IMG/VR virus record: IMGVR_UViG_3300021962_000022
Reading direction: 5' to 3' (one strand)
Origin: a virus
Lineage: Duplodnaviria > Caudoviricetes
DNA: 64,000 nt
The notes beneath the pieces were generated by a model. It was not told the origin of the DNA. It saw nothing but the letters and a program-made list of their open reading frames with translations, and did no database searches. A program made the translations under genes and the position numbers. This document shows positions 47,783-59,244 of this stretch, one piece after another. Position 1 is the first letter of the stretch, and each line of letters begins with the position of its first letter.

Positions 47783-49696
47783 TTAAACTTTAATGAATTG
47801 TTTAGTTAATTGTTTATTATAATTATTTAATACTAAATAATAATTACCTGCTGCGGATGATGTCATATCAATTTGCTTATATGCAATTTTTTCTGATGAA
47901 TTGGTTGAAACAGAACCGATGTTTTTAACCAATTGACCTCTCACGTCATAAATTGAACCAATCATCTCCATATTTGGATTTGGGAACCTAATTTCAATTT
48001 CAAACCAACCACTTGTCGGGTTTGGTCTAATTGATGCTGTGATTTCATCAATTGATTGGTCTGTAGGTGGGGCCATTTTGTACATAATAACCGCAATACT
48101 ACTAACCAAATCAATGTTTAAATGGTCTCCTCTTTCATCTGACGCATCCATCAACTCTCTGACATAGATATTACTTACGATGTCATTATTACCAATTGGT
48201 GAGAATTTTAATTTAAATGGGGTTGCTTGACCAATCAAACCATTTTTGAATTGGTTATTCATACCACCAAATCTAATTGTACCATTGGTTGCGTCGTGAG
48301 TTACATATTGTAACCATGGACCCCCATTAAAATTTGATACAATCTCTTCAAATTTAACTTTAGTTTTATCGTACTTCATTTCAAATTGTAATCCATAATT
48401 GTTATCACCATTTGTGTTAACATTAAATGGTACATATATTGGTTGACTTCCTGTTGCAGAAGTGTTAGGTATCTCAACATCTAATTTACCTTTGAATACC
48501 GCTTTAGCAACTAATACACCTGATGAGTTCCATACTCTTGATGAATATGTTCTATCTACGTCACCCTGAATAAAGTATTTAATGTTTACCGTTTTATTCA
48601 CTAAACCAACACTATCCGTGATAAAATTGGTTGCGGTTAAATGGTTTGGCCAATCGTTCCATTGGGTTGAACCTAAAACTAAAGAGTCGTAAACACTCGC
48701 GTGGAAAGTTCTAATCATTGTTGTAGTATCTATTTTTTTCATACCACTTACGTTAGCGTAAATTAGATATGGGTCACCACCGTCTAATTTTCCGTTTTGG
48801 TTCATATCACCAATAAGGTACGCTAAACCATTTTTTAAATATTGTTGACCAAATCCTTGGTTAACATCTGTAATAGTATATTCATCGTAAGTCTTAACCG
48901 CGTCTGATATTGTAACAGCATAATCCCTAAAGACTTCCATACTGTCAGCGGGGAATCTCACCAATAATTTATATTTGGTGTTTTTGTCTACGTTGTTTAG
49001 TGAATAGTTACCCGCGGTATCACATAAAGACGATGAAACAAAAGTACCTGTATTAAACTTTGTACATATAACTGTTGGTCTTCTACCAGCCAATTTCATT
49101 GTTGGTGGTAATTCAACAACGCCACTAATCACCAAGTTACCTAAAAGTTCAAGGTGCATATCTTGTACATTCAAGATTGCGATGTTATCACCAATTGTAG
49201 AACCGTCATATTTGAACATTCTAGCCCAGTTAATTTCAACGCTATCGGCGTCAAAGTTTGATTCGACATCATTAATAATAAATTTGTTATGTATTAAAAA
49301 TGTGTCTTGTGTTATTTGAGAACCACTTGAAAGAACCAAGAAATTTCTCGCTACGGTGTAGTTAGTATCACTCGTATATGAATACAAACCTGTACCCGAA
49401 CTATAACTTGAGTATTTGTAATTGCTAAAGAATTTTATCGAAAGAGCCGGAGTCATAGTACTCACAGTTGGGTCAACAGTAGTTGATACGTGAGTGAAAA
49501 GTTGTTTTCTATACTGAAAATCAACTTGGAATGTTCTTACGTCAACCGCAGATGCTGGTGTGTATTTAAACACAACATCTAAAGTGTCACCTCTTTTGAT
49601 AGTTTTATACGCAACGGGATTACCTATTTGAGGTGTTTGTGAAAACGCCATTGTCGTGAGAAATAATGTAATTAGGAAAAGTGTTATTTTTTTCAT
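47783..49696 (-). CDS. T9SS cargo protein with cohesin-like and dockerin-like domains
   Basis: Signal peptide; GLQFEMKYDKTKVKF (cohesin-like); GDMNQNGKLDGGD (dockerin-like); C-terminal IRPNPTSG..IYDVRGQLV..GNYYLVL..TKQFIKV = type A T9SS CTD. Confidence 0.85.
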   Translation of the reverse strand: MKKITLFLITLFLTTMAFSQTPQIGNPVAYKTIKRGDTLDVVFKYTPASAVDVRTFQVDFQYRKQLFTHVSTTVDPTVSTMTPALSIKFFSNYKYSSYSSGTGLYSYTSDTNYTVARNFLVLSSGSQITQDTFLIHNKFIINDVESNFDADSVEINWARMFKYDGSTIGDNIAILNVQDMHLELLGNLVISGVVELPPTMKLAGRRPTVICTKFNTGTFVSSSLCDTAGNYSLNNVDKNTKYKLLVRFPADSMEVFRDYAVTISDAVKTYDEYTITDVNQGFGQQYLKNGLAYLIGDMNQNGKLDGGDPYLIYANVSGMKKIDTTTMIRTFHASVYDSLVLGSTQWNDWPNHLTATNFITDSVGLVNKTVNIKYFIQGDVDRTYSSRVWNSSGVLVAKAVFKGKLDVEIPNTSATGSQPIYVPFNVNTNGDNNYGLQFEMKYDKTKVKFEEIVSNFNGGPWLQYVTHDATNGTIRFGGMNNQFKNGLIGQATPFKLKFSPIGNNDIVSNIYVRELMDASDERGDHLNIDLVSSIAVIMYKMAPPTDQSIDEITASIRPNPTSGWFEIEIRFPNPNMEMIGSIYDVRGQLVKNIGSVSTNSSEKIAYKQIDMTSSAAGNYYLVLNNYNKQLTKQFIKV

Positions 49697-50190
49697 AGTA
49701 TTAATTTGTTTATTAGGGTTTGAGTTGTTTTCTTTAATGCCGAACTAGCAGATTGTTGATTGAATTTACCACCCTCATCAATCATAATAGTTGAGGTTGA
49801 AATTTCGGTAGATTTACCTTCCGAGAATTCCTGTTTAATTTTTTTATCACCTTTGTATAAAACACCTTTCATTCTTATCACAGTCGTTGTTTTATCTTCG
49901 TGAAAAATACTAACCCCCGAGTTAGTTGTTACAATGTCAAAAAATATAAGTTCAACTTTAATTTTGTAGTCGGCTTTATTTTTATCTGTAATCAGAATTA
50001 AACTATCCTGTTCGTTTATGATTTCTTCAATGATGTTTTTTACACCAAAAGCTAAATTTTTGTTTTCAGTAAACGGACCAATTTTAATGTTATTGATAAC
50101 AGTATCAACAACAATAGTTTGAGCATTTAGATTAGAAAATCCAAATGATATTAAAAATAATAGTAATATGATGGGTAATCTTTTCATCAC
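49693..50190 (-). CDS. Exported protein (CsgG/LptE-like alpha-beta fold, tentative)
   Basis: Signal peptide; ends SALKKTTQTLINKL like CsgG-family C-termini. Confidence 0.55.
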   Translation of the reverse strand: MMKRLPIILLLFLISFGFSNLNAQTIVVDTVINNIKIGPFTENKNLAFGVKNIIEEIINEQDSLILITDKNKADYKIKVELIFFDIVTTNSGVSIFHEDKTTTVIRMKGVLYKGDKKIKQEFSEGKSTEISTSTIMIDEGGKFNQQSASSALKKTTQTLINKLIL

Positions 50191-50210
50191 AAAAAAGAAA
50201 AAAAGGAAAA

Positions 50211-50231
50211 AACGGGGTTATTAGACCCCGT
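50211..50231 (-). terminator. Terminator-like hairpin after ORF 50237
   Basis: ACGGGGTC-TAAT-AACCCCGT-TTTT on the minus strand. Confidence 0.7.
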
Positions 50232-50236
50232 AATTC

Positions 50237-50491
50237 TTATTCAGAAACTTCGTCTTCTGATTTTTTCTTATGTGAGAACTTGTCTAAAGTATCTGCACCC
50301 ATTCCAATTGCAGTAATTACCATTACCGCATTTACCAATTCTTCTGATGGTTTAATGTCACCATGTGTAAAAGAGTTTGCCATCATGGTTCCGCAAAGGA
50401 ATAACGCACCTAAGAGCGCGATTACCGGTTTGATTGAAGTTGACCCTCTTTCGTCTTTGAATAGGTCAATAATCCATTTTTTAAAGTTCAT
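50237..50491 (-). CDS. Two-TM small membrane protein (holin-like)
   Basis: 84 aa, two hydrophobic helices, charged C-terminus. Confidence 0.6.
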   Translation of the reverse strand: MNFKKWIIDLFKDERGSTSIKPVIALLGALFLCGTMMANSFTHGDIKPSEELVNAVMVITAIGMGADTLDKFSHKKKSEDEVSE

Positions 50492-50588
50492 AGTTGTAAT
50501 TTAGTTTAGTTTTATTATTTGGTTTACTATAAATACCACGGCAATTCAGATTTTCATATATATTATTTTAAAAAAATTTTAAACTTTT

Positions 50589-50620
50589 CTTGTTTTTCCG
50601 AATACTTATTGTTATCTTTG
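50589..50620 (+). promoter_or_regulatory. Bacteroidota sigma70-type promoter of tRNA operon 1
   Basis: CTTG (50589-92), 20-nt spacer, TATCTTTG (50613-20). Confidence 0.8.
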
Positions 50621-50651
50621 TAAAAGATTTTAAAAATTAAATAAACTTTCG

Positions 50652-50741
50652 ATGATACGCTCAACACATACAATGTCGTTTACAATCTGTTCAAAATGGG
50701 CAGAGGTGGCTGATATTTGCATGTCCCGAGGTGTCTTGTGA
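50652..50741 (+). CDS. Candidate attenuator leader peptide 1 (MIRSTHTMSFTICSKWAEVADICMSRGVL)
   Basis: 29-codon ORF between promoter and terminator; contains the antiterminator segment 50724-50732. Confidence 0.55.
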   Translation: MIRSTHTMSFTICSKWAEVADICMSRGVL

Positions 50742-50769
50742 GTTGTTTAGTTTAAAACGATACTTTAAG

Positions 50770-50799
50770 AACCTCGGGAGAAATCTCGAGGTTTTTTTG
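50770..50799 (+). terminator. Attenuator terminator 1
   Basis: AACCTCGGGA-GAAA-TCTCGAGGTT plus T run. Confidence 0.9.
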
Positions 50800-50805
50800 T
50801 TTTAT

Positions 50806-50875
50806 GGGCCTGATGTCAACGGCAGACCGTCTGATTTGCAATCAGAACGATTGGGTTCGATTCCCACAGTGTCCA
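50806..50875 (+). tRNA. tRNA-Ala(TGC), imperfect acceptor/T stems
   Basis: TCTGA-TT TGC AA-TCAGA; G3:U70 present; TTCGATT loop. Confidence 0.7.
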
Positions 50876-50881
50876 CAAAGA

Positions 50882-50904
50882 TGTTCTTTGACATATTGGT
50901 TTAA
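50882..50904 (+). promoter_or_regulatory. boxA-like antitermination element
   Basis: TGTTCTTTGACATATTGGTTTAA, identical 23-mer at 53981-54003. Confidence 0.6.
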
Positions 50905-50907
50905 TTT

Positions 50908-50980
50908 GGTACCGTAGCTCAGTAGGTAGAGCACCAGACTGAAAATCTGGGTGTCACTGGTTCAAATCCAGTCGGTACCA
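50908..50980 (+). tRNA. tRNA-Phe(GAA)
   Basis: CCAGA-CT GAA AA-TCTGG; acceptor GGTACCG/CGGTACC. Confidence 0.95.
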
Positions 50981-50985
50981 CACTT

Positions 50986-51059
50986 GTCTTCGTAGCTCAG
51001 TTGGTTAGAGCACCTCACTTTTAATGAGGGAGTCACGCGTTCGAGTCGCGTCGGGGACA
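50986..51059 (+). tRNA. tRNA-Lys(TTT)
   Basis: CCTCA-CT TTT AA-TGAGG. Confidence 0.95.
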
Positions 51060-51063
51060 CAAA

Positions 51064-51191
51064 GGTTGATTGGGGAATGGTTATGTCTATAGTTCGAGAG
51101 TGAATACTGACTGATATAATCGGAGTTTGGAGGTATTCACCTAAGTAACGCCAATCGTAAAAGGAGATGTCCACTGAACCATCTTCTCCTT
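51064..51191 (+). ncRNA. Unassigned structured RNA A
   Basis: GATTGG/CCAATC, GTTAT/GTAAC, GTGAATAC/GTATTCAC, AGGAGATG/CATCTTCT. Confidence 0.5.
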
Positions 51192-51201
51192 TCCTTGACT
51201 T

Positions 51202-51274
51202 AGTTCCTTAGCTCAGTTGGTAGAGCATCTGCCTTACATGCAGAGGGTCGTTGGTTCGAATCCGACAGGAACTA
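51202..51274 (+). tRNA. tRNA-Val(TAC)
   Basis: TCTGC-CT TAC AT-GCAGA. Confidence 0.95.
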
Positions 51275-51282
51275 CATTATAC

Positions 51283-51353
51283 ACAGGTGTGGTGAAAGGG
51301 TATCATACCGGTCTCCAAAACCGTTGTTGGGAGTTCGAATCTCTCCACCTGTG
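51283..51353 (+). tRNA. tRNA-Trp(CCA)
   Basis: CGGT-CT CCA AA-ACCG; acceptor ACAGGTG/CACCTGT. Confidence 0.92.
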
Positions 51354-51428
51354 CAAATTATATGTAAAGACATATAAAATAACGGTACATAATAAAATTA
51401 TATCTAAAAACATATAAAACTAAAAACT

Positions 51429-51860
51429 ATGAATAATCAAATGGGAATCGAAGCAGCAAAAATTAAATTTGAGGCTGAGAAAATGAAACTAAAGGAGGAA
51501 AGAGAACAAAGGATTAAAGATTTTTGGGAAAACGGAATACCCAAATTAAATAATCCTGAAGACGTACCAACCCTTCCAAGAGTGAATGAAAAAGAATGGA
51601 AAGAGTATTATGTACCAAGATTGATTGATGCGGGTGCAATCCCCAAAAAAGATTTAATCCACGGACAAGTTTATATTGGTGACCATCGAAACACAGATGT
51701 TGCAAGATGGAATCAAGAAACAAATAAATTTGACCATATGAGATATAAATTTGGTTGGAGGAAAGATGACTGTAACCATTTTGAAGATGATGATGGGTTT
51801 GCGTTATTTGTTCCGATTAGATTAGGTACTGAAGATGATTGGAATGAAAGAATTAAATAA
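51429..51860 (+). CDS. Hypothetical protein within the tRNA array
   Basis: 143 aa, A-rich initiation context. Confidence 0.75.
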   Translation: MNNQMGIEAAKIKFEAEKMKLKEEREQRIKDFWENGIPKLNNPEDVPTLPRVNEKEWKEYYVPRLIDAGAIPKKDLIHGQVYIGDHRNTDVARWNQETNKFDHMRYKFGWRKDDCNHFEDDDGFALFVPIRLGTEDDWNERIK

Positions 51861-51865
51861 ATGAT

Positions 51866-51939
51866 ACTCTCGTAGTTCAATGGATTAGAACATTTCACTA
51901 CGGATGAAAGGGTTGGGAGTTCGAGTCTCTCCGAGAGTA
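51866..51939 (+). tRNA. tRNA-Arg(ACG)
   Basis: TTTCA-CT ACG GA-TGAAA. Confidence 0.93.
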
Positions 51940-51945
51940 CAATAA

Positions 51946-52015
51946 GGTCAGTTTGGTCATGGAGGCCGGTTAGTCTGCAAAACTAACGGAGTTGGTTCGA
52001 TTCCAACATTGACCT
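51946..52015 (+). tRNA. tRNA-Cys(GCA)
   Basis: TTAGT-CT GCA AA-ACTAA; U73 discriminator. Confidence 0.9.
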
Positions 52016-52071
52016 CAATATAAGGTCTGAACCTAATAGTGGGGGATTATTAGGTCTAGAACTTATAATAT

Positions 52072-52146
52072 GGTAGATATAGTTCAGTTGGTTAGAACGT
52101 CTGATTGTGGTTCAGAAGGTCGTCGGTTCGAATCCGATTATTTACC
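52072..52146 (+). tRNA. tRNA-His(GTG)
   Basis: TCTGA-TT GTG GT-TCAGA; G-1:C73. Confidence 0.93.
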
Positions 52147-52152
52147 CTTTAT

Positions 52153-52229
52153 TGGAATATAGCTCAATTGGTTAGAGCATTCGTCTGATACGCGAAAGGT
52201 TATAGGTTCGATTCCTATTATTCCAACCA
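52153..52229 (+). tRNA. tRNA-Ile(GAT), CCA encoded
   Basis: TTCGT-CT GAT AC-GCGAA. Confidence 0.95.
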
Positions 52230-52234
52230 AACAT

Positions 52235-52308
52235 TGCGGGGTGGACTGGAGAGGTTCCAGCTCAGTCTCATAAGCTGAATGACGTGGGTTCGATTCCCAC
52301 CCCCGCAA
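52235..52308 (+). tRNA. tRNA-Met(CAT), initiator-like 5' end
   Basis: TCAGT-CT CAT AA-GCTGA; starts TGCGGGGTGG but lacks the three G:C anticodon-stem pairs. Confidence 0.85.
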
Positions 52309-52388
52309 CTTTTTCATTGAATATTTTGAAATATGAAATTTCATGTTTATATTTTAATTGTTCGTTTGTTCTTTGAAATAAAAATATG

Positions 52389-52471
52389 GGTATAACTAGG
52401 GTCGAGCCAGATTTTGCCACGGTTATATCAAGGGTTGGAAGGACCAGAGCTGGCCGTGACTACTCCAACCC
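52389..52471 (+). ncRNA. Unassigned structured RNA B (two hairpins with complementary loops)
   Basis: GGTATAAC/GTTATATC and GGGTTGGA/TCCAACCC; loop segments GCCAG/CTGGC and GGTC/GACT; boxA-like site at 52367-79 upstream. Confidence 0.55.
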
Positions 52472-52477
52472 ACTATC

Positions 52478-52551
52478 GCCTCCTTAGCTCAGTTGGCCAG
52501 AGCGCCTCACTTGTAATGAGGATGTCGTTGGTTCGAATCCGACAGGAGGCT
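52478..52551 (+). tRNA. tRNA-Thr(TGT)
   Basis: CCTCA-CT TGT AA-TGAGG. Confidence 0.95.
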
Positions 52552-52560
52552 CTGCAGGGT

Positions 52561-52646
52561 TTTCGGTGTAAAGGGTGTCACAACCTACCTGAGCAAAACC
52601 TAACACATGTCCACTATGTGTTAGGGTAATGTGGATAAAACCGAAA
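52561..52646 (+). ncRNA. Unassigned structured RNA C (pseudoknot)
   Basis: TTTCGGT/ACCGAAA closing stem; CCTAACACAT/ATGTGTTAGG with loop GTCCAC pairing to GTGGAT at 52631-36. Confidence 0.55.
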
Positions 52647-52648
52647 TT

Positions 52649-52720
52649 GGTCTCATAGTTAAACGGCTATAATGCAGCCCTGTCACGGCTGAGTTCGGGG
52701 TTCGATTCCCCGTGGGACCG
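52649..52720 (+). tRNA. tRNA-Asp(GTC)
   Basis: CAGCC-CT GTC AC-GGCTG. Confidence 0.95.
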
Positions 52721-52721
52721 C

Positions 52722-53005
52722 AATGGGTAAGAGATACTCAGGAAGATTGGCTACATTCTTTAAAAAAGTAGTGGTGGTAAAAAAATCCTCGACCTTAATG
52801 AGGTATCGATTCGGATAAAACGGTAGCAAGACTCTGCACCGCCGACGTATAGAGTTGACAGGTTTTTATGTGGTAAGACACTAATGAGAAAGGCCCAATG
52901 ATGGAGGACACTTTTAAGCAATATGTTCAGAGAGCGTTGGGGGATATGGTTCTCGAAACAGTGAGAGAAACCCGTTAAAATCTACTTATTGTAATCTCAG
53001 ATAAG
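52722..53005 (+). ncRNA. Unassigned ~285-nt multi-helix RNA D
   Basis: AATGGGT/ACCCGTT long-range pair; CCCAAT/GTTGGG crossing GAGAGC/GTTCTC; several local hairpins; no ORF in the track. Confidence 0.5.
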
Positions 53006-53011
53006 GAAATT

Positions 53012-53097
53012 GGAGAGTTGGCAGAGCTGGTTGAACGCGGCGGTCTTGAAAACCGTTTTATCGAAAGGTAACGGGGGTTCGAATCCCTCACTCTCCG
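53012..53097 (+). tRNA. tRNA-Ser(TGA)
   Basis: GCGGT-CT TGA AA-ACCGT; long variable arm. Confidence 0.95.
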
Positions 53098-53105
53098 CAA
53101 ATTAT

Positions 53106-53180
53106 GGCCCTTTCGTCTATCGGTTAGGACAGGTCCCTTTCACGGACCAGAGACGGGTTCGATTCCCGTAGGGGCTACCA
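53106..53180 (+). tRNA. tRNA-Glu(TTC), CCA encoded
   Basis: GGTCC-CT TTC AC-GGACC. Confidence 0.95.
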
Positions 53181-53194
53181 AACAAAAAACCAAT

Positions 53195-53437
53195 ATGTTA
53201 GAGAAAATTTTAGAACAATACGAAGGTGAAGAAATCTTAATCGCGGATGGATTTGATAATGCTGTTATAGGTATTGACGAATCTTCAATGAGATTAATTT
53301 ATTCTGTTGAAAAGTGTATAGAAATCCTTATGAAACAAGGAATGGATATGACTGAAGCCGTTGAATACTTTGATTTTAATGTGTCAGGTTCATATGTTGG
53401 GGAGAAGACACCAATATGGTGTGACGATTTATTTTAA
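53195..53437 (+). CDS. Small acidic hypothetical protein
   Basis: 80 aa; ADGFDNAVIG..RLIYS..EAVEYFDFNV.GSYVGEKTP. Confidence 0.75.
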   Translation: MLEKILEQYEGEEILIADGFDNAVIGIDESSMRLIYSVEKCIEILMKQGMDMTEAVEYFDFNVSGSYVGEKTPIWCDDLF

Positions 53438-53550
53438 AAAATAACACCCTATGTTACCCTATTGTTAAAGGAATTTATTAATATGTTTTTTTTATTATAT
53501 TACAATATCTATAAGTAATAATAAAAAATAAAAACAAACAAAAGAAAATT

Positions 53551-53715
53551 ATGCAAAAAGAACAAATACTAGGAATCGTAAGACACACATTAACATTTAT
53601 TGGTGGTGCATTAGTAGCAAAAGGATTAACAACAGACGTTTTATCTAATGAATTAATTGGTGCTGCAATGACATTAATTGGTGGTGTGTGGTCAATCATA
53701 TCAAAAAATAAATAA
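53551..53715 (+). CDS. Small two-TM protein, holin-like (not in the ORF track)
   Basis: MQKEQILGIVRHTLTFIGGALVAKGLTTDVLSNELIGAAMTLIGGVWSIISKNK, 54 aa, A-rich initiation region. Confidence 0.75.
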   Translation: MQKEQILGIVRHTLTFIGGALVAKGLTTDVLSNELIGAAMTLIGGVWSIISKNK

Positions 53716-53731
53716 AAAAATTTTAAAATTA

Positions 53732-53762
53732 CTTGTAAATAAAAAAACTTTTCGTATCTTTG
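53732..53762 (+). promoter_or_regulatory. Bacteroidota sigma70-type promoter of tRNA operon 2
   Basis: CTTG (53732-35), 19-nt spacer, TATCTTTG (53755-62). Confidence 0.8.
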
Positions 53763-53779
53763 TAATAGTTATTTAAGAA

Positions 53780-53884
53780 ATGATGAACTTGGTATACATA
53801 CAACAACCGTCAAACAATCCACTTAGTGGTAATGGGAGAGGTATATATTTATGTGGCCCAAGTTCGGAGTTAAACAAGTTGTAA
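53780..53884 (+). CDS. Candidate attenuator leader peptide 2 (MMNLVYIQQPSNNPLSGNGRGIYLCGPSSELNKL)
   Basis: 34-codon ORF between promoter and terminator; contains the antiterminator segment 53861-53871. Confidence 0.5.
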   Translation: MMNLVYIQQPSNNPLSGNGRGIYLCGPSSELNKL

Positions 53885-53910
53885 GAAAGTAAAAAACTTA
53901 TAGACAGGTG

Positions 53911-53942
53911 AAACCCGAACTCAAAAAAAGTTCGGGTTTTTT
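53911..53942 (+). terminator. Attenuator terminator 2
   Basis: AAACCCGAACT-CAAAAAA-AGTTCGGGTTT plus T run. Confidence 0.9.
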
Positions 53943-53980
53943 GTTTTTTAAGATTTTCGCTCTTATATTTTGATTATATT

Positions 53981-54003
53981 TGTTCTTTGACATATTGGTT
54001 TAA
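53981..54003 (+). promoter_or_regulatory. boxA-like antitermination element
   Basis: Identical to 50882-50904. Confidence 0.6.
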
Positions 54004-54009
54004 GTAGAT

Positions 54010-54094
54010 GCCGAGGTGATGGAATGGTAGACATGAGGGACTTAAAATCCCTTGGACAGTAATGTTCGTGTGGGTTCGACTCCCATCCTCGGTA
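54010..54094 (+). tRNA. tRNA-Leu(TAA)
   Basis: AGGGA-CT TAA AA-TCCCT; long variable arm. Confidence 0.95.
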
Positions 54095-54097
54095 CAA

Positions 54098-54300
54098 AAG
54101 AAACATCCTTACAGAAGGTGATAATGCTTCACTGAAAGGACTACTGACTTCCAAGTGGGTCGCAACCACAATCGGAAGGTACGACACGGCTCAGTAGACT
54201 CTGTAATGGACCCTGATCTATGGTGCACACATAACAGGTGATGGGGAACAAACCATCGGTAAAATCTAAACCTACGGTGAGCGTAGAAGGATTGTTTCTT
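54098..54300 (+). ncRNA. Unassigned ~200-nt multi-helix RNA E
   Basis: AAGAAACA-TCCT/AGGA-T-TGTTTCTT ends; TACAGA/TCTGTA; CTACTGA/TCAGTAG; CTTCC/GGAAG; CCTG/CAGG; GATGG/CCATC; CTACG/CGTAG. Confidence 0.65.
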
Positions 54301-54306
54301 TTTTTT

Positions 54307-54380
54307 GTCTCCGTAGCTCAGTTGGATAGAGCAACAGCCTTCTAAGCTGTGGGTCATTGGTTCGAATCCAATCGGGGATA
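54307..54380 (+). tRNA. tRNA-Arg(TCT)
   Basis: ACAGC-CT TCT AA-GCTGT. Confidence 0.95.
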
Positions 54381-54382
54381 CT

Positions 54383-54522
54383 AAGATAGTGGTCACTCTT
54401 ACAATGAAAGTCGACAAAGTAGTTGTAAGGTTCATAGTGTTCAGCACCCTCGGCCAGTGCACTGATAAAACTCAGAAGAAGCCGTTAAGATTGGAGCGAG
54501 ATGGGTACTCCATCACTATCTT
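54383..54522 (+). ncRNA. Unassigned ~140-nt structured RNA F
   Basis: AAGATAGTG/CACTATCTT ends; CTTACAA/TTGTAAG enclosing GAA...AGTA; TCAG-CAC/GTG-CA-CTGA; TGGAG/CTCCA. Confidence 0.6.
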
Positions 54523-54527
54523 TTTAT

Positions 54528-54600
<73 letters not shown>

Positions 54601-54605
54601 CACAA

Positions 54606-54677
54606 TCCTCGATAGCTCAGCGGTAGAGCACACGGCTGTTAACCGTGTGGTCGTTGGTTCGAATCCATCTCGGGGAG
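54606..54677 (+). tRNA. tRNA-Asn(GTT)
   Basis: CACGG-CT GTT AA-CCGTG. Confidence 0.93.
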
Positions 54678-54753
54678 CAAAAAAATCGCTGATAGAAACA
54701 TCGAAGGTGTACAATGCTAGCAACACCGTAGGTTAAGCGATATCCTACAATAG

Positions 54754-54834
54754 GCCTTGGTGGTGGAATGGTAGACACGCTAGTCTTAGGAACTAGTGGC
54801 GAAAGTCGTGTCGGTTCGAGTCCGACCTGAGGTA
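54754..54834 (+). tRNA. tRNA-Leu(TAG)
   Basis: CTAGT-CT TAG GA-ACTAG; long variable arm. Confidence 0.95.
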
Positions 54835-54840
54835 CAAAAT

Positions 54841-54923
54841 TGAAAGGTGGGTGAGTGGTTAAAACCGACAGACTGTAAATCTGTTCTCTTTGGAGTACGG
54901 CGGTTCGAATCCGTCCCTTTCAA
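54841..54923 (+). tRNA. tRNA-Tyr(GTA)
   Basis: ACAGA-CT GTA AA-TCTGT; long variable arm. Confidence 0.95.
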
Positions 54924-54936
54924 CAAAAATATTAAT

Positions 54937-55491
54937 ATGGGAACTAGAAGTAAAAAAATTTCAGAGATGTTATCAAACATAACACCTGAAATGAAAGAGA
55001 AATGGAAACAAGAAAGAGTTGAGAGTAAAAAGAAATTAACTCTTGAATATCAACTTGGTTACTATGTTGGTTTGGAGATTGTTCACAGATATCTACCAAC
55101 ACTTTCCACAGATATGTTACAATCTCGTACCGTGATTGAAGTTTCTGAAGAAGATACTTTAGAAAATGAAAGATTGGATACCGAATGGTATTCAACAACA
55201 ACACACGGTGGAGAATGGAATGGTGTTGATGAAAATGGTAATAAAGAAAAATGGGAGTTGTACCATCAACACAATAAGATGTTAGAGAGGAAATACCTAC
55301 CAAATCCATTAGAGTGTTACATGAGTTTATTAAATGTTCAAAACATGGATGAATTTAAAAAAGGTTTAAGGTTCGCTTTGTGGGATTGTGATATGTGTTC
55401 ATACAATATTGAACCTGAAAACATAAAAATTTACGATGATGAACAATCAATGTTTACAATCATCGAATTACAATTAGATTCAGTGGTGTAG
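54937..55491 (+). CDS. Hypothetical protein within the tRNA array
   Basis: In frame with ORF-track 54847; true start likely ATG 54937 (MGTRSKK) after tRNA-Tyr; stop lies inside the next tRNA. Confidence 0.75.
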   Translation: MGTRSKKISEMLSNITPEMKEKWKQERVESKKKLTLEYQLGYYVGLEIVHRYLPTLSTDMLQSRTVIEVSEEDTLENERLDTEWYSTTTHGGEWNGVDENGNKEKWELYHQHNKMLERKYLPNPLECYMSLLNVQNMDEFKKGLRFALWDCDMCSYNIEPENIKIYDDEQSMFTIIELQLDSVV

Positions 55492-55558
55492 CTCAATTGG
55501 TGAGAGCAGGACTCTTATACAGTCAAGGTTATGGGTTCAAATCCCGTCATCACTACCA
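55482..55558 (+). tRNA. tRNA-Ile(TAT), CCA encoded
   Basis: GACT-CT TAT AC-AGTC; acceptor AGTGGTG/CATCACT. Confidence 0.85.
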
Positions 55559-55581
55559 ATTATCGTCGATTTGAACGATAC

Positions 55582-55655
55582 GGTCCCTTAGCTCAGTTGG
55601 TTAGAGCAACTGACTCATAATCAGTAGGTCCACGGTTCAAGCCCGTGAGGGACCA
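55582..55655 (+). tRNA. tRNA(CAT), Ile2-like (lysidine type) or elongator Met
   Basis: ACTGA-CT CAT AA-TCAGT; body GGTCCCTTAGCTCAG..TTAGAGCA..GACTCATAATC resembles bacterial Ile2 tRNAs. Confidence 0.85.
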
Positions 55656-55682
55656 CGGAGATATTTATATAATAAAAAAACT

Positions 55683-56054
55683 ATGGGAATTGAATTAAAA
55701 AAGAAAAAACAACTTATTGAAAGATTAAATAAAAGATTATTATCTGAAGCTGAGATGGAATGCCCCAAATCAACAAAAGATACTGAACTTAACGACACCA
55801 ATAAGAAAAAAATCGAAAAGACACATCAGTACGGATTACCAACTGAAGAAGCAAAAGAAAAAAATCAAAATTGTGGAAATTGTGTTGCGTTTGATATTTC
55901 ATCAAGAATGAAAGATTGTATGAGTGATAATAGTGGTGAAATTGGTTATTGTTGGATGCACCACTTTATGTGTTCAGGAAAAAAATGGTGTGACACATGG
56001 GTTGAAGGTGGTCCAATCACAAAAGATTCTGTTTCATACGAAAAACAACAATAA
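55683..56054 (+). CDS. Cys-rich protein with HiPIP-like cysteine spacing
   Basis: NCGNCVAF...GYCWMHHFMC...WCDTW; TATTTATA upstream. Confidence 0.65.
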   Translation: MGIELKKKKQLIERLNKRLLSEAEMECPKSTKDTELNDTNKKKIEKTHQYGLPTEEAKEKNQNCGNCVAFDISSRMKDCMSDNSGEIGYCWMHHFMCSGKKWCDTWVEGGPITKDSVSYEKQQ

Positions 56055-56117
56055 ATGTAGTCGTACCCTTAACTCCAAAACTCACCTATGAGTCTCCGTT
56101 ATGGGAAGGCTACTCCC

Positions 56118-56190
56118 GCGGAAATAGCTCAGTTGGTAGAGCATCACCTTGCCAAGGTGAGGGTCGCGAGTTCGAGTCTCGTTTTCCGCT
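56118..56190 (+). tRNA. tRNA-Gly(GCC)
   Basis: TCACC-TT GCC AA-GGTGA; U73. Confidence 0.95.
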
Positions 56191-56259
56191 CTAAGTAAAC
56201 CTTAAAAAGGGCCCTTCCGTTGGTACGACAACGGCTTGTTGGGCCCGGGTTTACTTTTT

Positions 56260-56331
56260 GCGAATATCGTATAATGGTCATTACTCCTTCCTTCCAAGTA
56301 GGAGATGTCGGTTCGATTCCGGCTATTCGCT
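56260..56331 (+). tRNA. tRNA-Gly(TCC)
   Basis: CCTTC-CT TCC AA-GTAGG (one mismatch); U73. Confidence 0.9.
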
Positions 56332-56384
56332 CAATCATTATAGAGACTACTAAATCGGGTTAGTGAGAATCTATTTGTTATTAT

Positions 56385-56455
56385 TGTCCTGTGGTGTAAC
56401 GGCAGCACATCTGGTTTTGGTCCAGAGAATTGAGGTTCGAATCCTTGCGGGACAA
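56385..56455 (+). tRNA. tRNA-Gln(TTG)
   Basis: TCTGG-TT TTG GT-CCAGA. Confidence 0.92.
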
Positions 56456-56493
56456 CAAAATTTTTAAATCATAAAAAAACCAATATGTCGAGA

Positions 56494-56581
56494 GGAAAGT
56501 TACCCAAGTTGGTGAAGGGGACGGTTTGCTAAACCGTTAGGTCGAGTAATCGGCGCGAGGGTTCGAGCCCCTCACTTTCCG
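56494..56581 (+). tRNA. tRNA-Ser(GCT)
   Basis: ACGGT-TT GCT AA-ACCGT; long variable arm. Confidence 0.95.
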
Positions 56582-56612
56582 CAAAATACTTATAACTAGA
56601 ATAATATGTAAT

Positions 56613-57074
56613 ATGACAAAATTTAGAACATTGTACGGAACACCCATAACTGACGTTATTGGTTACATCAAAGATTATTTGGTGGATAAAACTGATGTTG
56701 AGATATTAATTGGTTCGGATTCACAATCATTTAGTAATTCAAAAACGGTTTATGGAGTGGTTATTGCACTTTACACAACAGGTAAGGGTGCACACGTATT
56801 ATGTACTAAAGACGTTACACCATTTGAAAAAGATACATCAAGTAGATTAATGACCGAAGTTTGGAAAGCTGTTGAAGTTGCTGAACATTTGAGAAATAAT
56901 GGTTTACCAAAAGCCACATGGATTGATATAGACTTAAATCCTGACCCAAGATATAAATCAAACAAAGTTTTAAGACAAGCGGTTGGTTTGGTTGAGGGTA
57001 TGGGATACAAGGTAAGATACAAACACGCAGGTGCTATGGTGACTTACAGTGCAAACCATTTGGTAAGAATTTAA
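56613..57074 (+). CDS. RNase H-like protein, YkuK/DUF458 family
   Basis: ILIGSDSQ, GKGA, RLMTEV..AVEVA, IDIDLN..KSN, C-terminal A.H. Confidence 0.75.
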   Translation: MTKFRTLYGTPITDVIGYIKDYLVDKTDVEILIGSDSQSFSNSKTVYGVVIALYTTGKGAHVLCTKDVTPFEKDTSSRLMTEVWKAVEVAEHLRNNGLPKATWIDIDLNPDPRYKSNKVLRQAVGLVEGMGYKVRYKHAGAMVTYSANHLVRI

Positions 57075-57102
57075 ATTTTTTTTATTTTTTTTTTTGAAAG
57101 GG

Positions 57103-57133
57103 CTTGTTTTTTAAAAAAAGTTTCTTACCTTTG
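57103..57133 (+). promoter_or_regulatory. Bacteroidota sigma70-type promoter of the 690-aa protein / RNA-array operon
   Basis: CTTG (57103-06), 19-nt spacer, TACCTTTG (57126-33). Confidence 0.8.
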
Positions 57134-57171
57134 TACCACTACAATAAATTACAACATTTAATACGACATAT

Positions 57172-59244
57172 ATGACAACAAGAAATTTAGTTGCATTTCA
57201 AAAGAATTTGGTGTGTTCACCAAACGACGGTCAAGATAACAGAATCGCCGTAGCAACCGTACAATCCCACCTAATGCAATGGGGTTACATGTTAGACGAA
57301 GACGCTTTCTTCGCATTATCCAAATCAGATTTATCGTTTATTCAAAACTTCAATGACGAAGTGTTGAATCATTTGAAAAATGTAATGGGGGGTAATCGTA
57401 ATTACCAACCTTTATATAAAAATTTCCCACAAGAAGTAATGGTTATGTCCGACTTCGAATTGTACATGAACGCAATCATGCACTATTGGAGTAACGGTCA
57501 ATGGGAACCATCCACCCATACTTATGAGAAAGAAATCAAGTTTGAAAAAATCAAATACAACTTGATTAAGTATGGTACTTCGGAAAGATTCTCAAAAATT
57601 TTCACTGATTTAGTGTCAATAAACACATCATTAACTCCTCAAGACCTTGAGATTGTTAAATGGTTTGTTGAGAGTGGTGAAACATTGGTCTTCCCTGACA
57701 CAATTCCCTTTAAAGAGAACTTGTGTACATTGGCGGCCATGGGAATCGCGGGATTACCAGTTAAGACTTCAACCGATGTGTTAAGAATCGCCGTTCATCT
57801 TTCAGGTGGTGATATCAGTTTACCAAAAGTTCCTGAAAAGGAAATTAGAGCAAACAGATGGACTACTCAAAGGATTACAAATCCCGAAAGAGAAAAGTTT
57901 AAATTCAAGAAATTCTCTCGTAAAGAAAGAAAATACATCTTGGGTTTACTTGAGAACACAAACTGCGACCCACGTGAAATGGTTTTAAGAGACCAACGTT
58001 GGGTTCGTTTAGGTGAAATATTACACCCCGGTGAATATAAAAACCAATTCCCTAAGTCTTTCGAGGCCTTCAACAAAATCCGAAACGAGAAAGTAAAATC
58101 TTGGTTCGCACTTGTTAATGAAGGTTTCAATAAAGGGTTAGAGAATGGTTTGAGAGTATTGTCTCAAAGACCCGGTGAATTCTCTCGTAGAATGGATTGG
58201 TTGGTTCGTACATATCCAAAAGATATCGAACTAATTATGAAGTTCTTCGGGGAAGTGGTAAAAGGTACATCAAACAAAGTATTGTTTGAGGTTTACACTC
58301 ACTTTGAAAATCGTACTGAACCTGTAGATAATAGGTCTATTATGATTAAAGGAGCGAGAAAACGTACCACGTTACCATCACTACCAGCAATCCCTAAAGA
58401 AATTGTGGAAACCATCCACTCTAAATTATTTGAAACACTTAGAGATAAGTTTTCGGTAATGGAATCTTTAGGTAACTGTTGGATTGATGAGGAATTGAAA
58501 AAAATTCCTTTACCAACCAACATGAGAAGTATGAACTTCTCAACTAAACCAACAATCAGAGGTCAAAGAGTTCCACTTGAAAACCCTGATGCAAAAGTTA
58601 TCAGACCGTTTGTTCATTGGATGGATAAACGTGGTAGCGAAGACTTGGATTTAAGTGTTACGTTTGTTGGTGAAAAAGTGTCAGAAGTATTATCTTTCAG
58701 TAACTTGAGAGTTGGTAAATCTTGTCACTCAGGGGACGTGAGACATAGACAGGGTCCTTGTGCCGAGTACATCGACATCGATATCCAAGATGCGTTAAAA
58801 CAAGGATTCAAATACGCCGTTATTGACGTGAGAAACTTCAATGGTGGTACTTTGAGTTCACTTGAAACATCTTTTGGTATCATGGAACGAGAACATCCTG
58901 AATCAAACAAAACATGGTTACCTGAAACAATTTCAAATTGTCAATCATTGGAATCGGCGTCGTCAAACACATTGATTTCTATTATTGACCTTGAAACTAA
59001 GGAGTACATCATGTTGGATGTTGATTCATCAGGTTTCGTTACCGCGAGAGGTGACTTCAAAAACACACTGAAAGTAATTCAACAATACGCGGAATTACCA
59101 AAAGTAAGTGTTTATGACCTTATTCTTCTACACGTAGAAGGTCGAGGAAAACAAGTTACTCTTGATGAAAATGTCGACGTACATTTTAAGTACGAGGACT
59201 TCTGTTACTCTTATGAAGAGACAGGTAAATTGATGGGTGTCTAA
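57172..59244 (+). CDS. 690-aa protein: helical N-terminal region (possible Ro60/TROVE-like) plus C-terminal TerD-like domain
   Basis: C-terminal DLDLSV..HSGDVR..CAEYIDIDI..YAVIDVRNF resembles TerD; the TROVE-like call for the N-terminus is inference from size, helicity and the adjacent RNAs. Confidence 0.65.
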   Translation: MTTRNLVAFQKNLVCSPNDGQDNRIAVATVQSHLMQWGYMLDEDAFFALSKSDLSFIQNFNDEVLNHLKNVMGGNRNYQPLYKNFPQEVMVMSDFELYMNAIMHYWSNGQWEPSTHTYEKEIKFEKIKYNLIKYGTSERFSKIFTDLVSINTSLTPQDLEIVKWFVESGETLVFPDTIPFKENLCTLAAMGIAGLPVKTSTDVLRIAVHLSGGDISLPKVPEKEIRANRWTTQRITNPEREKFKFKKFSRKERKYILGLLENTNCDPREMVLRDQRWVRLGEILHPGEYKNQFPKSFEAFNKIRNEKVKSWFALVNEGFNKGLENGLRVLSQRPGEFSRRMDWLVRTYPKDIELIMKFFGEVVKGTSNKVLFEVYTHFENRTEPVDNRSIMIKGARKRTTLPSLPAIPKEIVETIHSKLFETLRDKFSVMESLGNCWIDEELKKIPLPTNMRSMNFSTKPTIRGQRVPLENPDAKVIRPFVHWMDKRGSEDLDLSVTFVGEKVSEVLSFSNLRVGKSCHSGDVRHRQGPCAEYIDIDIQDALKQGFKYAVIDVRNFNGGTLSSLETSFGIMEREHPESNKTWLPETISNCQSLESASSNTLISIIDLETKEYIMLDVDSSGFVTARGDFKNTLKVIQQYAELPKVSVYDLILLHVEGRGKQVTLDENVDVHFKYEDFCYSYEETGKLMGV

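Follow-up and report, generated by a model that had tools for sequence, protein, structure and literature searches.

The 64,000-nucleotide stretch of viral DNA analysed here (the window) comes from a giant freshwater phage and belongs to a 115.9-kb IMG/VR virus record, IMGVR_UViG_3300021962_000022, with an estimated completeness of 38%. Two clusters of tRNA genes lie on its plus strand, each headed by a promoter, a short open reading frame (ORF) and a terminator (Table 1). For the first of these, a preliminary description made from the sequence alone had reported a promoter, a 29-codon ORF, a strong terminator and a 9-nt sequence in the ORF complementary to the terminator, and all four are present; the length of the ORF was confirmed. 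A holin of the Pam3 gp28 family (53551-53715, plus strand) is encoded between both tRNA clusters, and an RNase H-like protein (56613-57074, plus strand) directly after cluster 2.

The promoter of leader 1 has the arrangement TTG-N20-TATCTTTG, which we take to be the -33/-7 promoter type of Bacteroidota. The preliminary description had called it host-type. A promoter is indeed present on the plus strand, and it is of the Bacteroidota -33/-7 type rather than sigma-70, which is why a sigma-70 promoter scan did not detect it ahead of leader 1. Motifs of the TTG...TATCTTTG type occur four times on the plus strand of 50000-57200, two of them preceding the two leaders, and the leader 1 promoter is kept in most relatives. 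A Bacteroidota host also fits the T9SS C-terminal sorting domain encoded by a neighbouring phage gene (a 637-aa protein, 47783-49696, minus strand, which has a weak cohesin-like match as well).

Table 1. Features of the two leader-tRNA units, in window coordinates.
Feature	Position	Strand	Basis or remark
Promoter 1, Bacteroidota type	50590-50620	+	-33 TTG (50590-50592), 20-nt spacer, -7 TATCTTTG (50613-50620)
Hairpin 1:2, long, imperfect	50635-50752	+	Predicted by MFE folding
Leader ORF 1, 29 codons	50652-50741	+	ORF list, homologues, codon tests
Region 2, antiterminator strand TCCCGAGGT	50724-50732	+	Within codons 25-27 of leader ORF 1
Region 3, terminator 5′ arm, alternative partner of region 2	50770-50779	+	Scan, covariation
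Region 4, terminator 3′ arm and T7 run	50784-50798	+	Scan, covariation
tRNA-Ala(UGC)-like gene, first of the putatively gated genes	50806-50875	+	Rfam tRNA 31.8 bits, cut-off 29
boxA-like GTTCTTTGACA	50883-50893	+	Shortly after candidate attenuator 1
Rest of tRNA cluster 1: Phe, Lys, Val, Trp, Arg(ACG), Cys, His, Ile(GAT), Met, Thr, Asp, Ser(TGA), Glu	50908-53180 (shared span)	+	
Promoter 2 (TTG ... TATCTTTG)	53733-53762	+	Motif scan
Leader ORF 2, 34 codons	53780-53884	+	Sequence unrelated to leader 1
Region 2 of leader 2, AGTTCGG	53861-53867	+	Arm pairing
Terminator 2	53911-53942	+	5′ arm CCGAACT (53915-53921), complementary to AGTTCGG
boxA-like GTTCTTTGACA, second copy	53982-53992	+	Shortly after candidate attenuator 2
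tRNA cluster 2: Leu(TAA), Arg(TCT), Pro, Asn, Leu(TAG), Tyr, Ile(TAT), Met, Gly(GCC), Gly(TCC), Gln, Ser(GCT)	54010-56582 (shared span)	+	

Cluster 1 comprises 14 tRNA genes, counting the tRNA-Ala-like gene at its head, which ARAGORN missed at 50806-50875. Its anticodon is UGC and its D stem has 3 bp; a G3:U70 pair, which marks alanine identity, is present, and the acceptor stem seems to contain one additional bulged base on its 3′ side. At the same place the relatives have either the unusual Ala form (many of them) or a canonical tRNA-Ala(TGC). With a gap of only 7 nt between the T run of the terminator and the gene, a further promoter would not fit ahead of the first tRNA. Further downstream the cluster includes an ORF of 143 aa, inside which lies a promoter-like motif, TTG-N22-TAAATTTG (51700-51732, plus strand); if active, this motif could supply the tRNAs from 51866 onward without the attenuator. 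The sequence GTTCTTTGACA resembles the boxA of rrn operons, which we take to be GCTCTTTAACA in E. coli. It occurs only twice in the 64-kb window, either strand considered, with one copy behind each candidate attenuator, and it is kept in relatives.

A terminator scan found the strong terminator that had been reported before the first tRNA. It has a 13-pair stem capped by a GAAA loop and followed by a T run, the 10-bp core (AACCTCGGGA / TCTCGAGGTT) spanning 50770-50793 and the T7 run 50792-50798. The complement noted within the ORF is exact over its 9 nt, TCCCGAGGT (50724-50732) facing ACCTCGGGA (50771-50779). Pairing of the terminator 5′ arm with the RNA upstream yields -18.9 kcal/mol, compared with -8.0 ± 1.8 kcal/mol in 300 dinucleotide shuffles, none of which (0/300) reached the observed value. 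The stop codon of leader 1 lies 6 nt after the end of region 2 and 28 nt ahead of the terminator stem, so that a ribosome sitting at the stop would, given the known size of its footprint, cover region 2 and spare region 3.

Folding of the whole leader 1 RNA gave a minimum free energy (MFE) with a z-score of -6.3 and a second partner for region 2. In the predicted 1:2 hairpin, one strand comprises the start-codon region and the first codons, the other the end of the ORF together with the 3′ flank of region 2. When 23 homologues were folded without region 3, region 2 or its 3′ flank was predicted to pair with ORF nucleotides -5 to +15 in 20 of them; the register of 1:2 differs between the two leader-1 subfamilies, its support coming from folding predictions. 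The layout of the leader 1 RNA is the classical one of 1:2, 2:3 and 3:4 helices, with 1:2 predicted by folding.

The codons of leader 1 were compared with the anticodons downstream. As had been remarked in the preliminary description, the leader has no run of a single amino acid and draws on many codons, sampling 16 amino acids. It contains a cognate codon for 13 of the 13 non-Met anticodons of cluster 1, and all of the matching codons precede region 2 (codons 2-24). Such full coverage was reached by 0 of 20,000 random codon strings of the same length taken from the phage's own long ORFs (P < 5e-5). Three codons of leader 1, ATA, GGT and TTG, are read only by cluster-2 tRNAs, and the match is therefore complete in one direction only.

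Relatives were collected as 138 related loci from viral contigs by way of two flanking proteins, and a conserved 20-mer search added 26 further loci; leader 1 was found by profile search in 62 loci, 28 of them distinct. In every homologue with a placeable start (about 26 distinct) the leader ORF is open, with a length of 28-34 codons, and the indels in its first 18 codons, of 3 or 6 nt, are all in-frame. The peptide core is strongly conserved within the leader-1 family, and synonymous third-position changes predominate in it. The frequent polymorphisms TCG/TCA (at two Ser codons), GCA/GCG, TTT/TTC and CGC/CGT/CGA are synonymous, and each such set of codons remains readable by a single phage tRNA. 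Conservation of this kind is expected of a sequence that is translated and for which the codon family matters, and we infer that the leader is translated. The second half of the peptide, by comparison, is wholly different between the two subfamilies, and the motif GTCYCGR is kept there in another reading frame in each; this persistence despite the frame change suggests that the motif is constrained at the level of the RNA.

Covariation was scored on an alignment redone from region 2 onward; a whole-leader MAFFT alignment was dropped, as region 2 of the two subfamilies fell three columns apart. In the antiterminator helix 2:3, 94.9% of cells are paired and four pairs have changed on both sides (18 cells), the paired changes including TCTCGAGGT/ACCTCGAGA (L004), TTCCGAG/CTCGGAA (L092) and GTCTCAG/CTGAGAC (L154). 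The covariation score of 0.259 fell to 0.002-0.089 when the partner was slid by 1-3 columns. In the terminator helix 3:4, 99.5% of cells are paired among 22 distinct homologues and three pairs have changed on both sides, with a score of 0.270 and values of 0.010-0.100 for the slid partner. The covariation of 2:3 is comparable to that of 3:4, and the antiterminator is thus as well supported as the terminator. Conservation of the pairing in related phages, which the preliminary description had proposed as a check, was thereby borne out.

Two groups of homologues depart from this plan. The natural leader-1 variant of L147 and L150 (on viral contigs 3300020198_000006 and 3300020222_001274) has lost region 2 and is directly followed by a tRNA; its terminator is mismatched in the 3′ arm and lacks a T run, and the unit is possibly constitutively open. 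Leader-1 subfamily 2 (L027, L023, L019, L021, L025, L154, L017 and L140) has an extra small hairpin between region 2 and the terminator; the 5′ arm of this hairpin contains the stop codon of the leader, as in GGTTAA ... TTAACC, and L140 shows compensating changes (GGCTAA ... TTGGCT).

The unusual stability of the leader RNA, together with a start codon predicted to be buried in the 1:2 helix, might be taken to indicate a switch made of RNA only, in which the long hairpin is the target of a protein or, as with a T-box, of a tRNA itself, the ORF being left untranslated. We regard this as very improbable. An Rfam cmscan of 50000-57500, with E values up to 1, placed no leader family (Trp_leader, His_leader, Leu_leader, Thr_leader, Bacteroid-trp or others) in 50589-50805, and no other Rfam family matched there at that threshold; the covariance model of the T-box (RF00230) had no match in this interval, which holds a conserved coding-type ORF instead. 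The restriction of the first half of the ORF to in-frame indels and the mostly synonymous third-position changes of its core also speak against such a switch, and one RNA would need to read thirteen different tRNAs. A small regulatory RNA was considered as the main reading as well and was rejected.

The unit ahead of cluster 2 repeats the arrangement with an unrelated leader. Leader 2 covers 11 of the 11 non-Met anticodons of its cluster (P = 0.004), and 82% of its codons are readable by cluster 2 (P < 5e-5). Leader 1 has 23 codons read only by cluster 1 and 3 read only by cluster 2, compared with 6 and 26, respectively, in leader 2 (Fisher p = 1.6e-7). The split runs through the codons of single amino acids: arginine is encoded by CGC and CGA in leader 1 versus AGA in leader 2, isoleucine by ATC and ATT versus ATA, and serine by TCN versus AGT. 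Cluster 2 also contains a match to the freshwater-1 RNA (RF02979; 54202-54264, plus strand), located between tRNA-Leu(TAA) and tRNA-Arg(TCT), with 71.6 bits against a gathering score of 72 and E = 1.6e-15; this orphan Rfam motif may be a phage RNA that is made along with the tRNAs.

Further leader-tRNA units were identified with a tRNA-blind rule, requiring a terminator with a tRNA at most 130 nt downstream and taking as leader the longest ATG ORF of 18-45 codons that ends 5-75 nt before the terminator. An earlier rule, under which the leader was the ORF whose stop lay nearest the terminator, was dropped since it chose wrong frames at several loci. The tRNA-blind rule yielded 45 distinct leaders in the collected loci. 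For 41 of them coverage of the anticodons as far as the next terminator is 100%, and the leaders belong to at least 10 sequence-unrelated families. For the coverage test 13 leader groups were used, namely ten families and three divergent variants of the two window families. Full coverage was given by a group's own leader in 12 of the 13 groups, and by the leader of another group in 13 of 156 pairings (permutation P about 1e-5).

Moreover, the leaders change along with the tRNA sets, as seen at the loci L022 and L014 and in the units of the phage record LR756501.1. At L022 the leader-1 scaffold is kept and its core spells Asn-Pro-Gln-Trp codons before tRNAs for Pro, Asn, Trp and Gln. Among some relatives (L019), Thr codons are kept in the leader and tRNA-Thr lies in the other cluster. 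The geometry is shared as well. In 17 representative leaders, most of them sequence-unrelated, the best partner of the terminator arm lies 0-18 nt before the stop, two of the 17 having an offset of -2, with the predicted duplex running into the stop codon; in each of the 17 the arm pairing is better than in at least 94% of shuffles.

LR756501.1, the public 735-kb record of an uncultured phage, was reached with the 143-aa ORF as query. The 40 kb around the match to this ORF contain no tRNA, the tRNA clusters being elsewhere in the record. Five leader-tRNA units (loci L167-L171) were found on its minus strand. A leader rich in Lys, His, Ser, Phe and Trp precedes tRNAs for Trp, His, His, Phe, Lys and Ser; one rich in Thr, Pro, Ala, Val, Arg and Gly precedes Arg, Thr, Val, Ala, Gly and Pro tRNAs; one rich in Met, Gln, Ile and Glu precedes Met, Gln, Ile and Glu tRNAs; a Tyr/Asn/Asp/Cys/Ile leader stands before Ile, Cys, Asp, Asn and Tyr tRNAs; and a Leu-rich leader before five tRNA-Leu. 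The record, which is without annotation, has 66 tRNA matches grouped by amino acid, with at least five clusters behind codon-matched leaders that have a common terminator type, ACCCAATCAG... Three of its leaders end in Leu-Ile-Gly, which corresponds to the antiterminator strand CTGATTGG or its variant TTGATTGG. A nucleotide search of GenBank phages with 50200-51100 matched tRNA genes only and not the leader, and a protein search with an 84-aa divergent neighbour gave no match.

Short ORFs ahead of terminators could also be ordinary small protein genes, with the tRNAs expressed through constitutive leakage of the terminator and the 9-nt complement incidental. Strong terminators often end small genes, and the strong conservation of the peptide core in the leader-1 family would suit a functional peptide. 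Yet region 2 covaries with the terminator arm and its motif survives a change of reading frame, leaders unrelated in sequence have in common only their geometry and the match to their tRNAs, and an autonomous peptide would not need to follow the anticodons encoded downstream. We therefore consider a plain small gene highly unlikely.

The locus brings together a short ORF, an intrinsic terminator, an exclusive antiterminator helix and control codons that match the product, all of them features of leader-peptide attenuators. On the strength of the sequence comparisons, cluster 1 is very probably gated by such an attenuator, which would sense the availability of those aminoacyl-tRNAs whose tRNAs the cluster itself encodes. 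The preliminary description had favoured a general translation sensor. In that alternative any slowing of the ribosome would open the cluster and the choice of codons would have no specific meaning, in keeping with the 16 amino acids sampled by leader 1 and its lack of a single-codon run; for antibiotic-resistance genes, attenuators responding to ribosome stalling in general are known. However, the codons of leader 1 match the tRNAs of cluster 1 and those of leader 2 the tRNAs of cluster 2, the partition of codons between the two leaders following exactly that of the tRNAs between the clusters. Full coverage by a group's own leader lies far beyond the chance level and exceeds what the leaders of other groups provide, and leaders vary with their tRNA sets (L022, L014, LR756501.1). 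A sensor indifferent to codon identity is accordingly improbable.

The attenuator specific to charged tRNAs would work as follows. Transcription would start a few nucleotides after the -7 box, with a ribosome translating the 29-codon leader close behind the RNA polymerase. When all codons are decoded promptly, the ribosome at the last codons would cover region 2, allowing the 3:4 hairpin to form, and transcription would end at the T run, ahead of tRNA-Ala. If a charged tRNA is scarce, the ribosome would stall earlier, leaving region 2 free while region 1 is still occupied; the free region 2 would pair with region 3, the terminator would not form and the whole of cluster 1 would be transcribed. 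With at least one codon for each cluster tRNA in the leader, a shortage of any one of them should suffice to open the cluster, and the newly made tRNAs would shut it off again. The scheme would amount to a demand-driven feedback loop acting on the product itself, and the unit at 53733-53942 would act likewise on cluster 2. Sensing by charged tRNA cannot separate a shortage of tRNA from amino-acid starvation.

The core of this logic, termination with the ribosome at the stop and read-through when it stalls, had been put forward in the preliminary description and is supported by the covariation of 2:3, by the coding-type conservation of the ORF and by the like geometry in the 17 leaders. Its further proposal, that an absent ribosome also allows read-through, appears doubtful. 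Without a ribosome the predicted 1:2 pairing would form and leave the terminator free, so that transcription would be expected to end.

The locus was also compared with contigs assembled from public RNA libraries, namely four runs belonging to four studies. The contigs come from relatives about 95% alike, do not allow true ends or ratios to be derived and may include DNA carry-over; they were aligned to 650 nt, the runs having been found via the leader alone, and a 2-kb alignment was uninformative for the leader. No contig of the four runs covers 50450-50625. In run X25 the contigs cover 50647-50874, with 16 unlike letters at the 5′ end, in X29 50691-50915 and in X33 50722-50982, whereas those of X34 end at 50776 and 50793, at the foot of the terminator stem. 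Contigs in three of the four runs thus cross the terminator from the leader into tRNA-Ala, and those of X34 stop at the stem. This fits a transcript start just after the promoter, together with terminated and read-through products.

Why and when large phages use their own tRNA genes is a long-standing question. The usual answers are that such tRNAs match codon usage, replace host tRNAs that have been degraded or let the phage escape anticodon nucleases. If the attenuator reading is true, the phage would gauge the speed of decoding codon by codon and top up only what is short, and the leaders would reveal which tRNAs it treats as one unit of supply, making the question testable. Possibly, although we put this forward tentatively and think it rather less likely than otherwise, the codon-matched leaders serve as sentinels that detect an assault on the pool of tRNAs: if particular tRNAs are removed, be it by an anticodon nuclease of the host or by the shut-off of the host that the phage itself brings about, ribosomes would stall at the corresponding leader codon and only the cluster with the replacement tRNAs would be turned on. 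The clustering of phage tRNA genes would then reflect which tRNAs are lost together. Furthermore, reporter fusions of the element, of about 200 nt, would report tRNA availability in living Bacteroidota cells. Going by the units recognised so far, the mechanism would be common in huge phages, including the published 735-kb genome that lacks its annotation.

Attenuation is known for amino-acid genes. For leader peptides or attenuators before tRNA genes, a full-text search of the literature found no description, whether in phages or in general, in agreement with the preliminary description, which had known of none for phage tRNA arrays; one paper (PMC3082878) contains all of the search terms but mentions a tRNA operon in passing.

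Among known systems, T-box riboswitches likewise sense the charging of a specific tRNA and choose between terminator and antiterminator. Unlike the present element, they bind the tRNA itself, by means of a specifier codon and the T-box bulge, each responding to one tRNA and having no translated ORF, and they control synthetase and amino-acid genes, mostly in Firmicutes. The attenuators of resistance genes (the ermC leader, bmrB-bmrCD and the vmlR leaders) resemble it in that a ribosome stalled on a short leader ORF frees an antiterminator, but there the stall arises from a drug on the ribosome and not from the codon-specific supply of tRNA. In the rRNA operons, boxA likewise stands at the head of a long operon for structured RNA; here the boxA is putative, being recognised by sequence likeness to that of E. 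coli. Leader-peptide attenuation is also used in the presumed host phylum: the Bacteroid-trp leader (RF01692) and similar predicted peptide leaders of Bacteroidota lie before tryptophan biosynthesis genes and have Trp codons only. No match to the Bacteroid-trp leader was found in 50000-57500.

The closest parallel is with the attenuators of amino-acid operons in Enterobacteria (trpL, hisL, leuL, thrL, pheL, ilvL and ivbL). These likewise have a promoter-proximal short ORF, 1:2, 2:3 and 3:4 helices with an intrinsic terminator before the first regulated gene, and control codons that read the supply of charged tRNA, and in the multivalent ilv leaders codons of three amino acids are already mixed. 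In contrast to them, the present unit is encoded by a phage and has a Bacteroidota-type promoter, and its leader represents each of 13 anticodons by one or a few codons instead of runs of a single codon. Above all, the genes under control would be those for tRNAs and not for biosynthetic enzymes, so that the product would feed straight back on the signal, extending classical attenuation from amino-acid operons to the genes for the sensed molecule itself.
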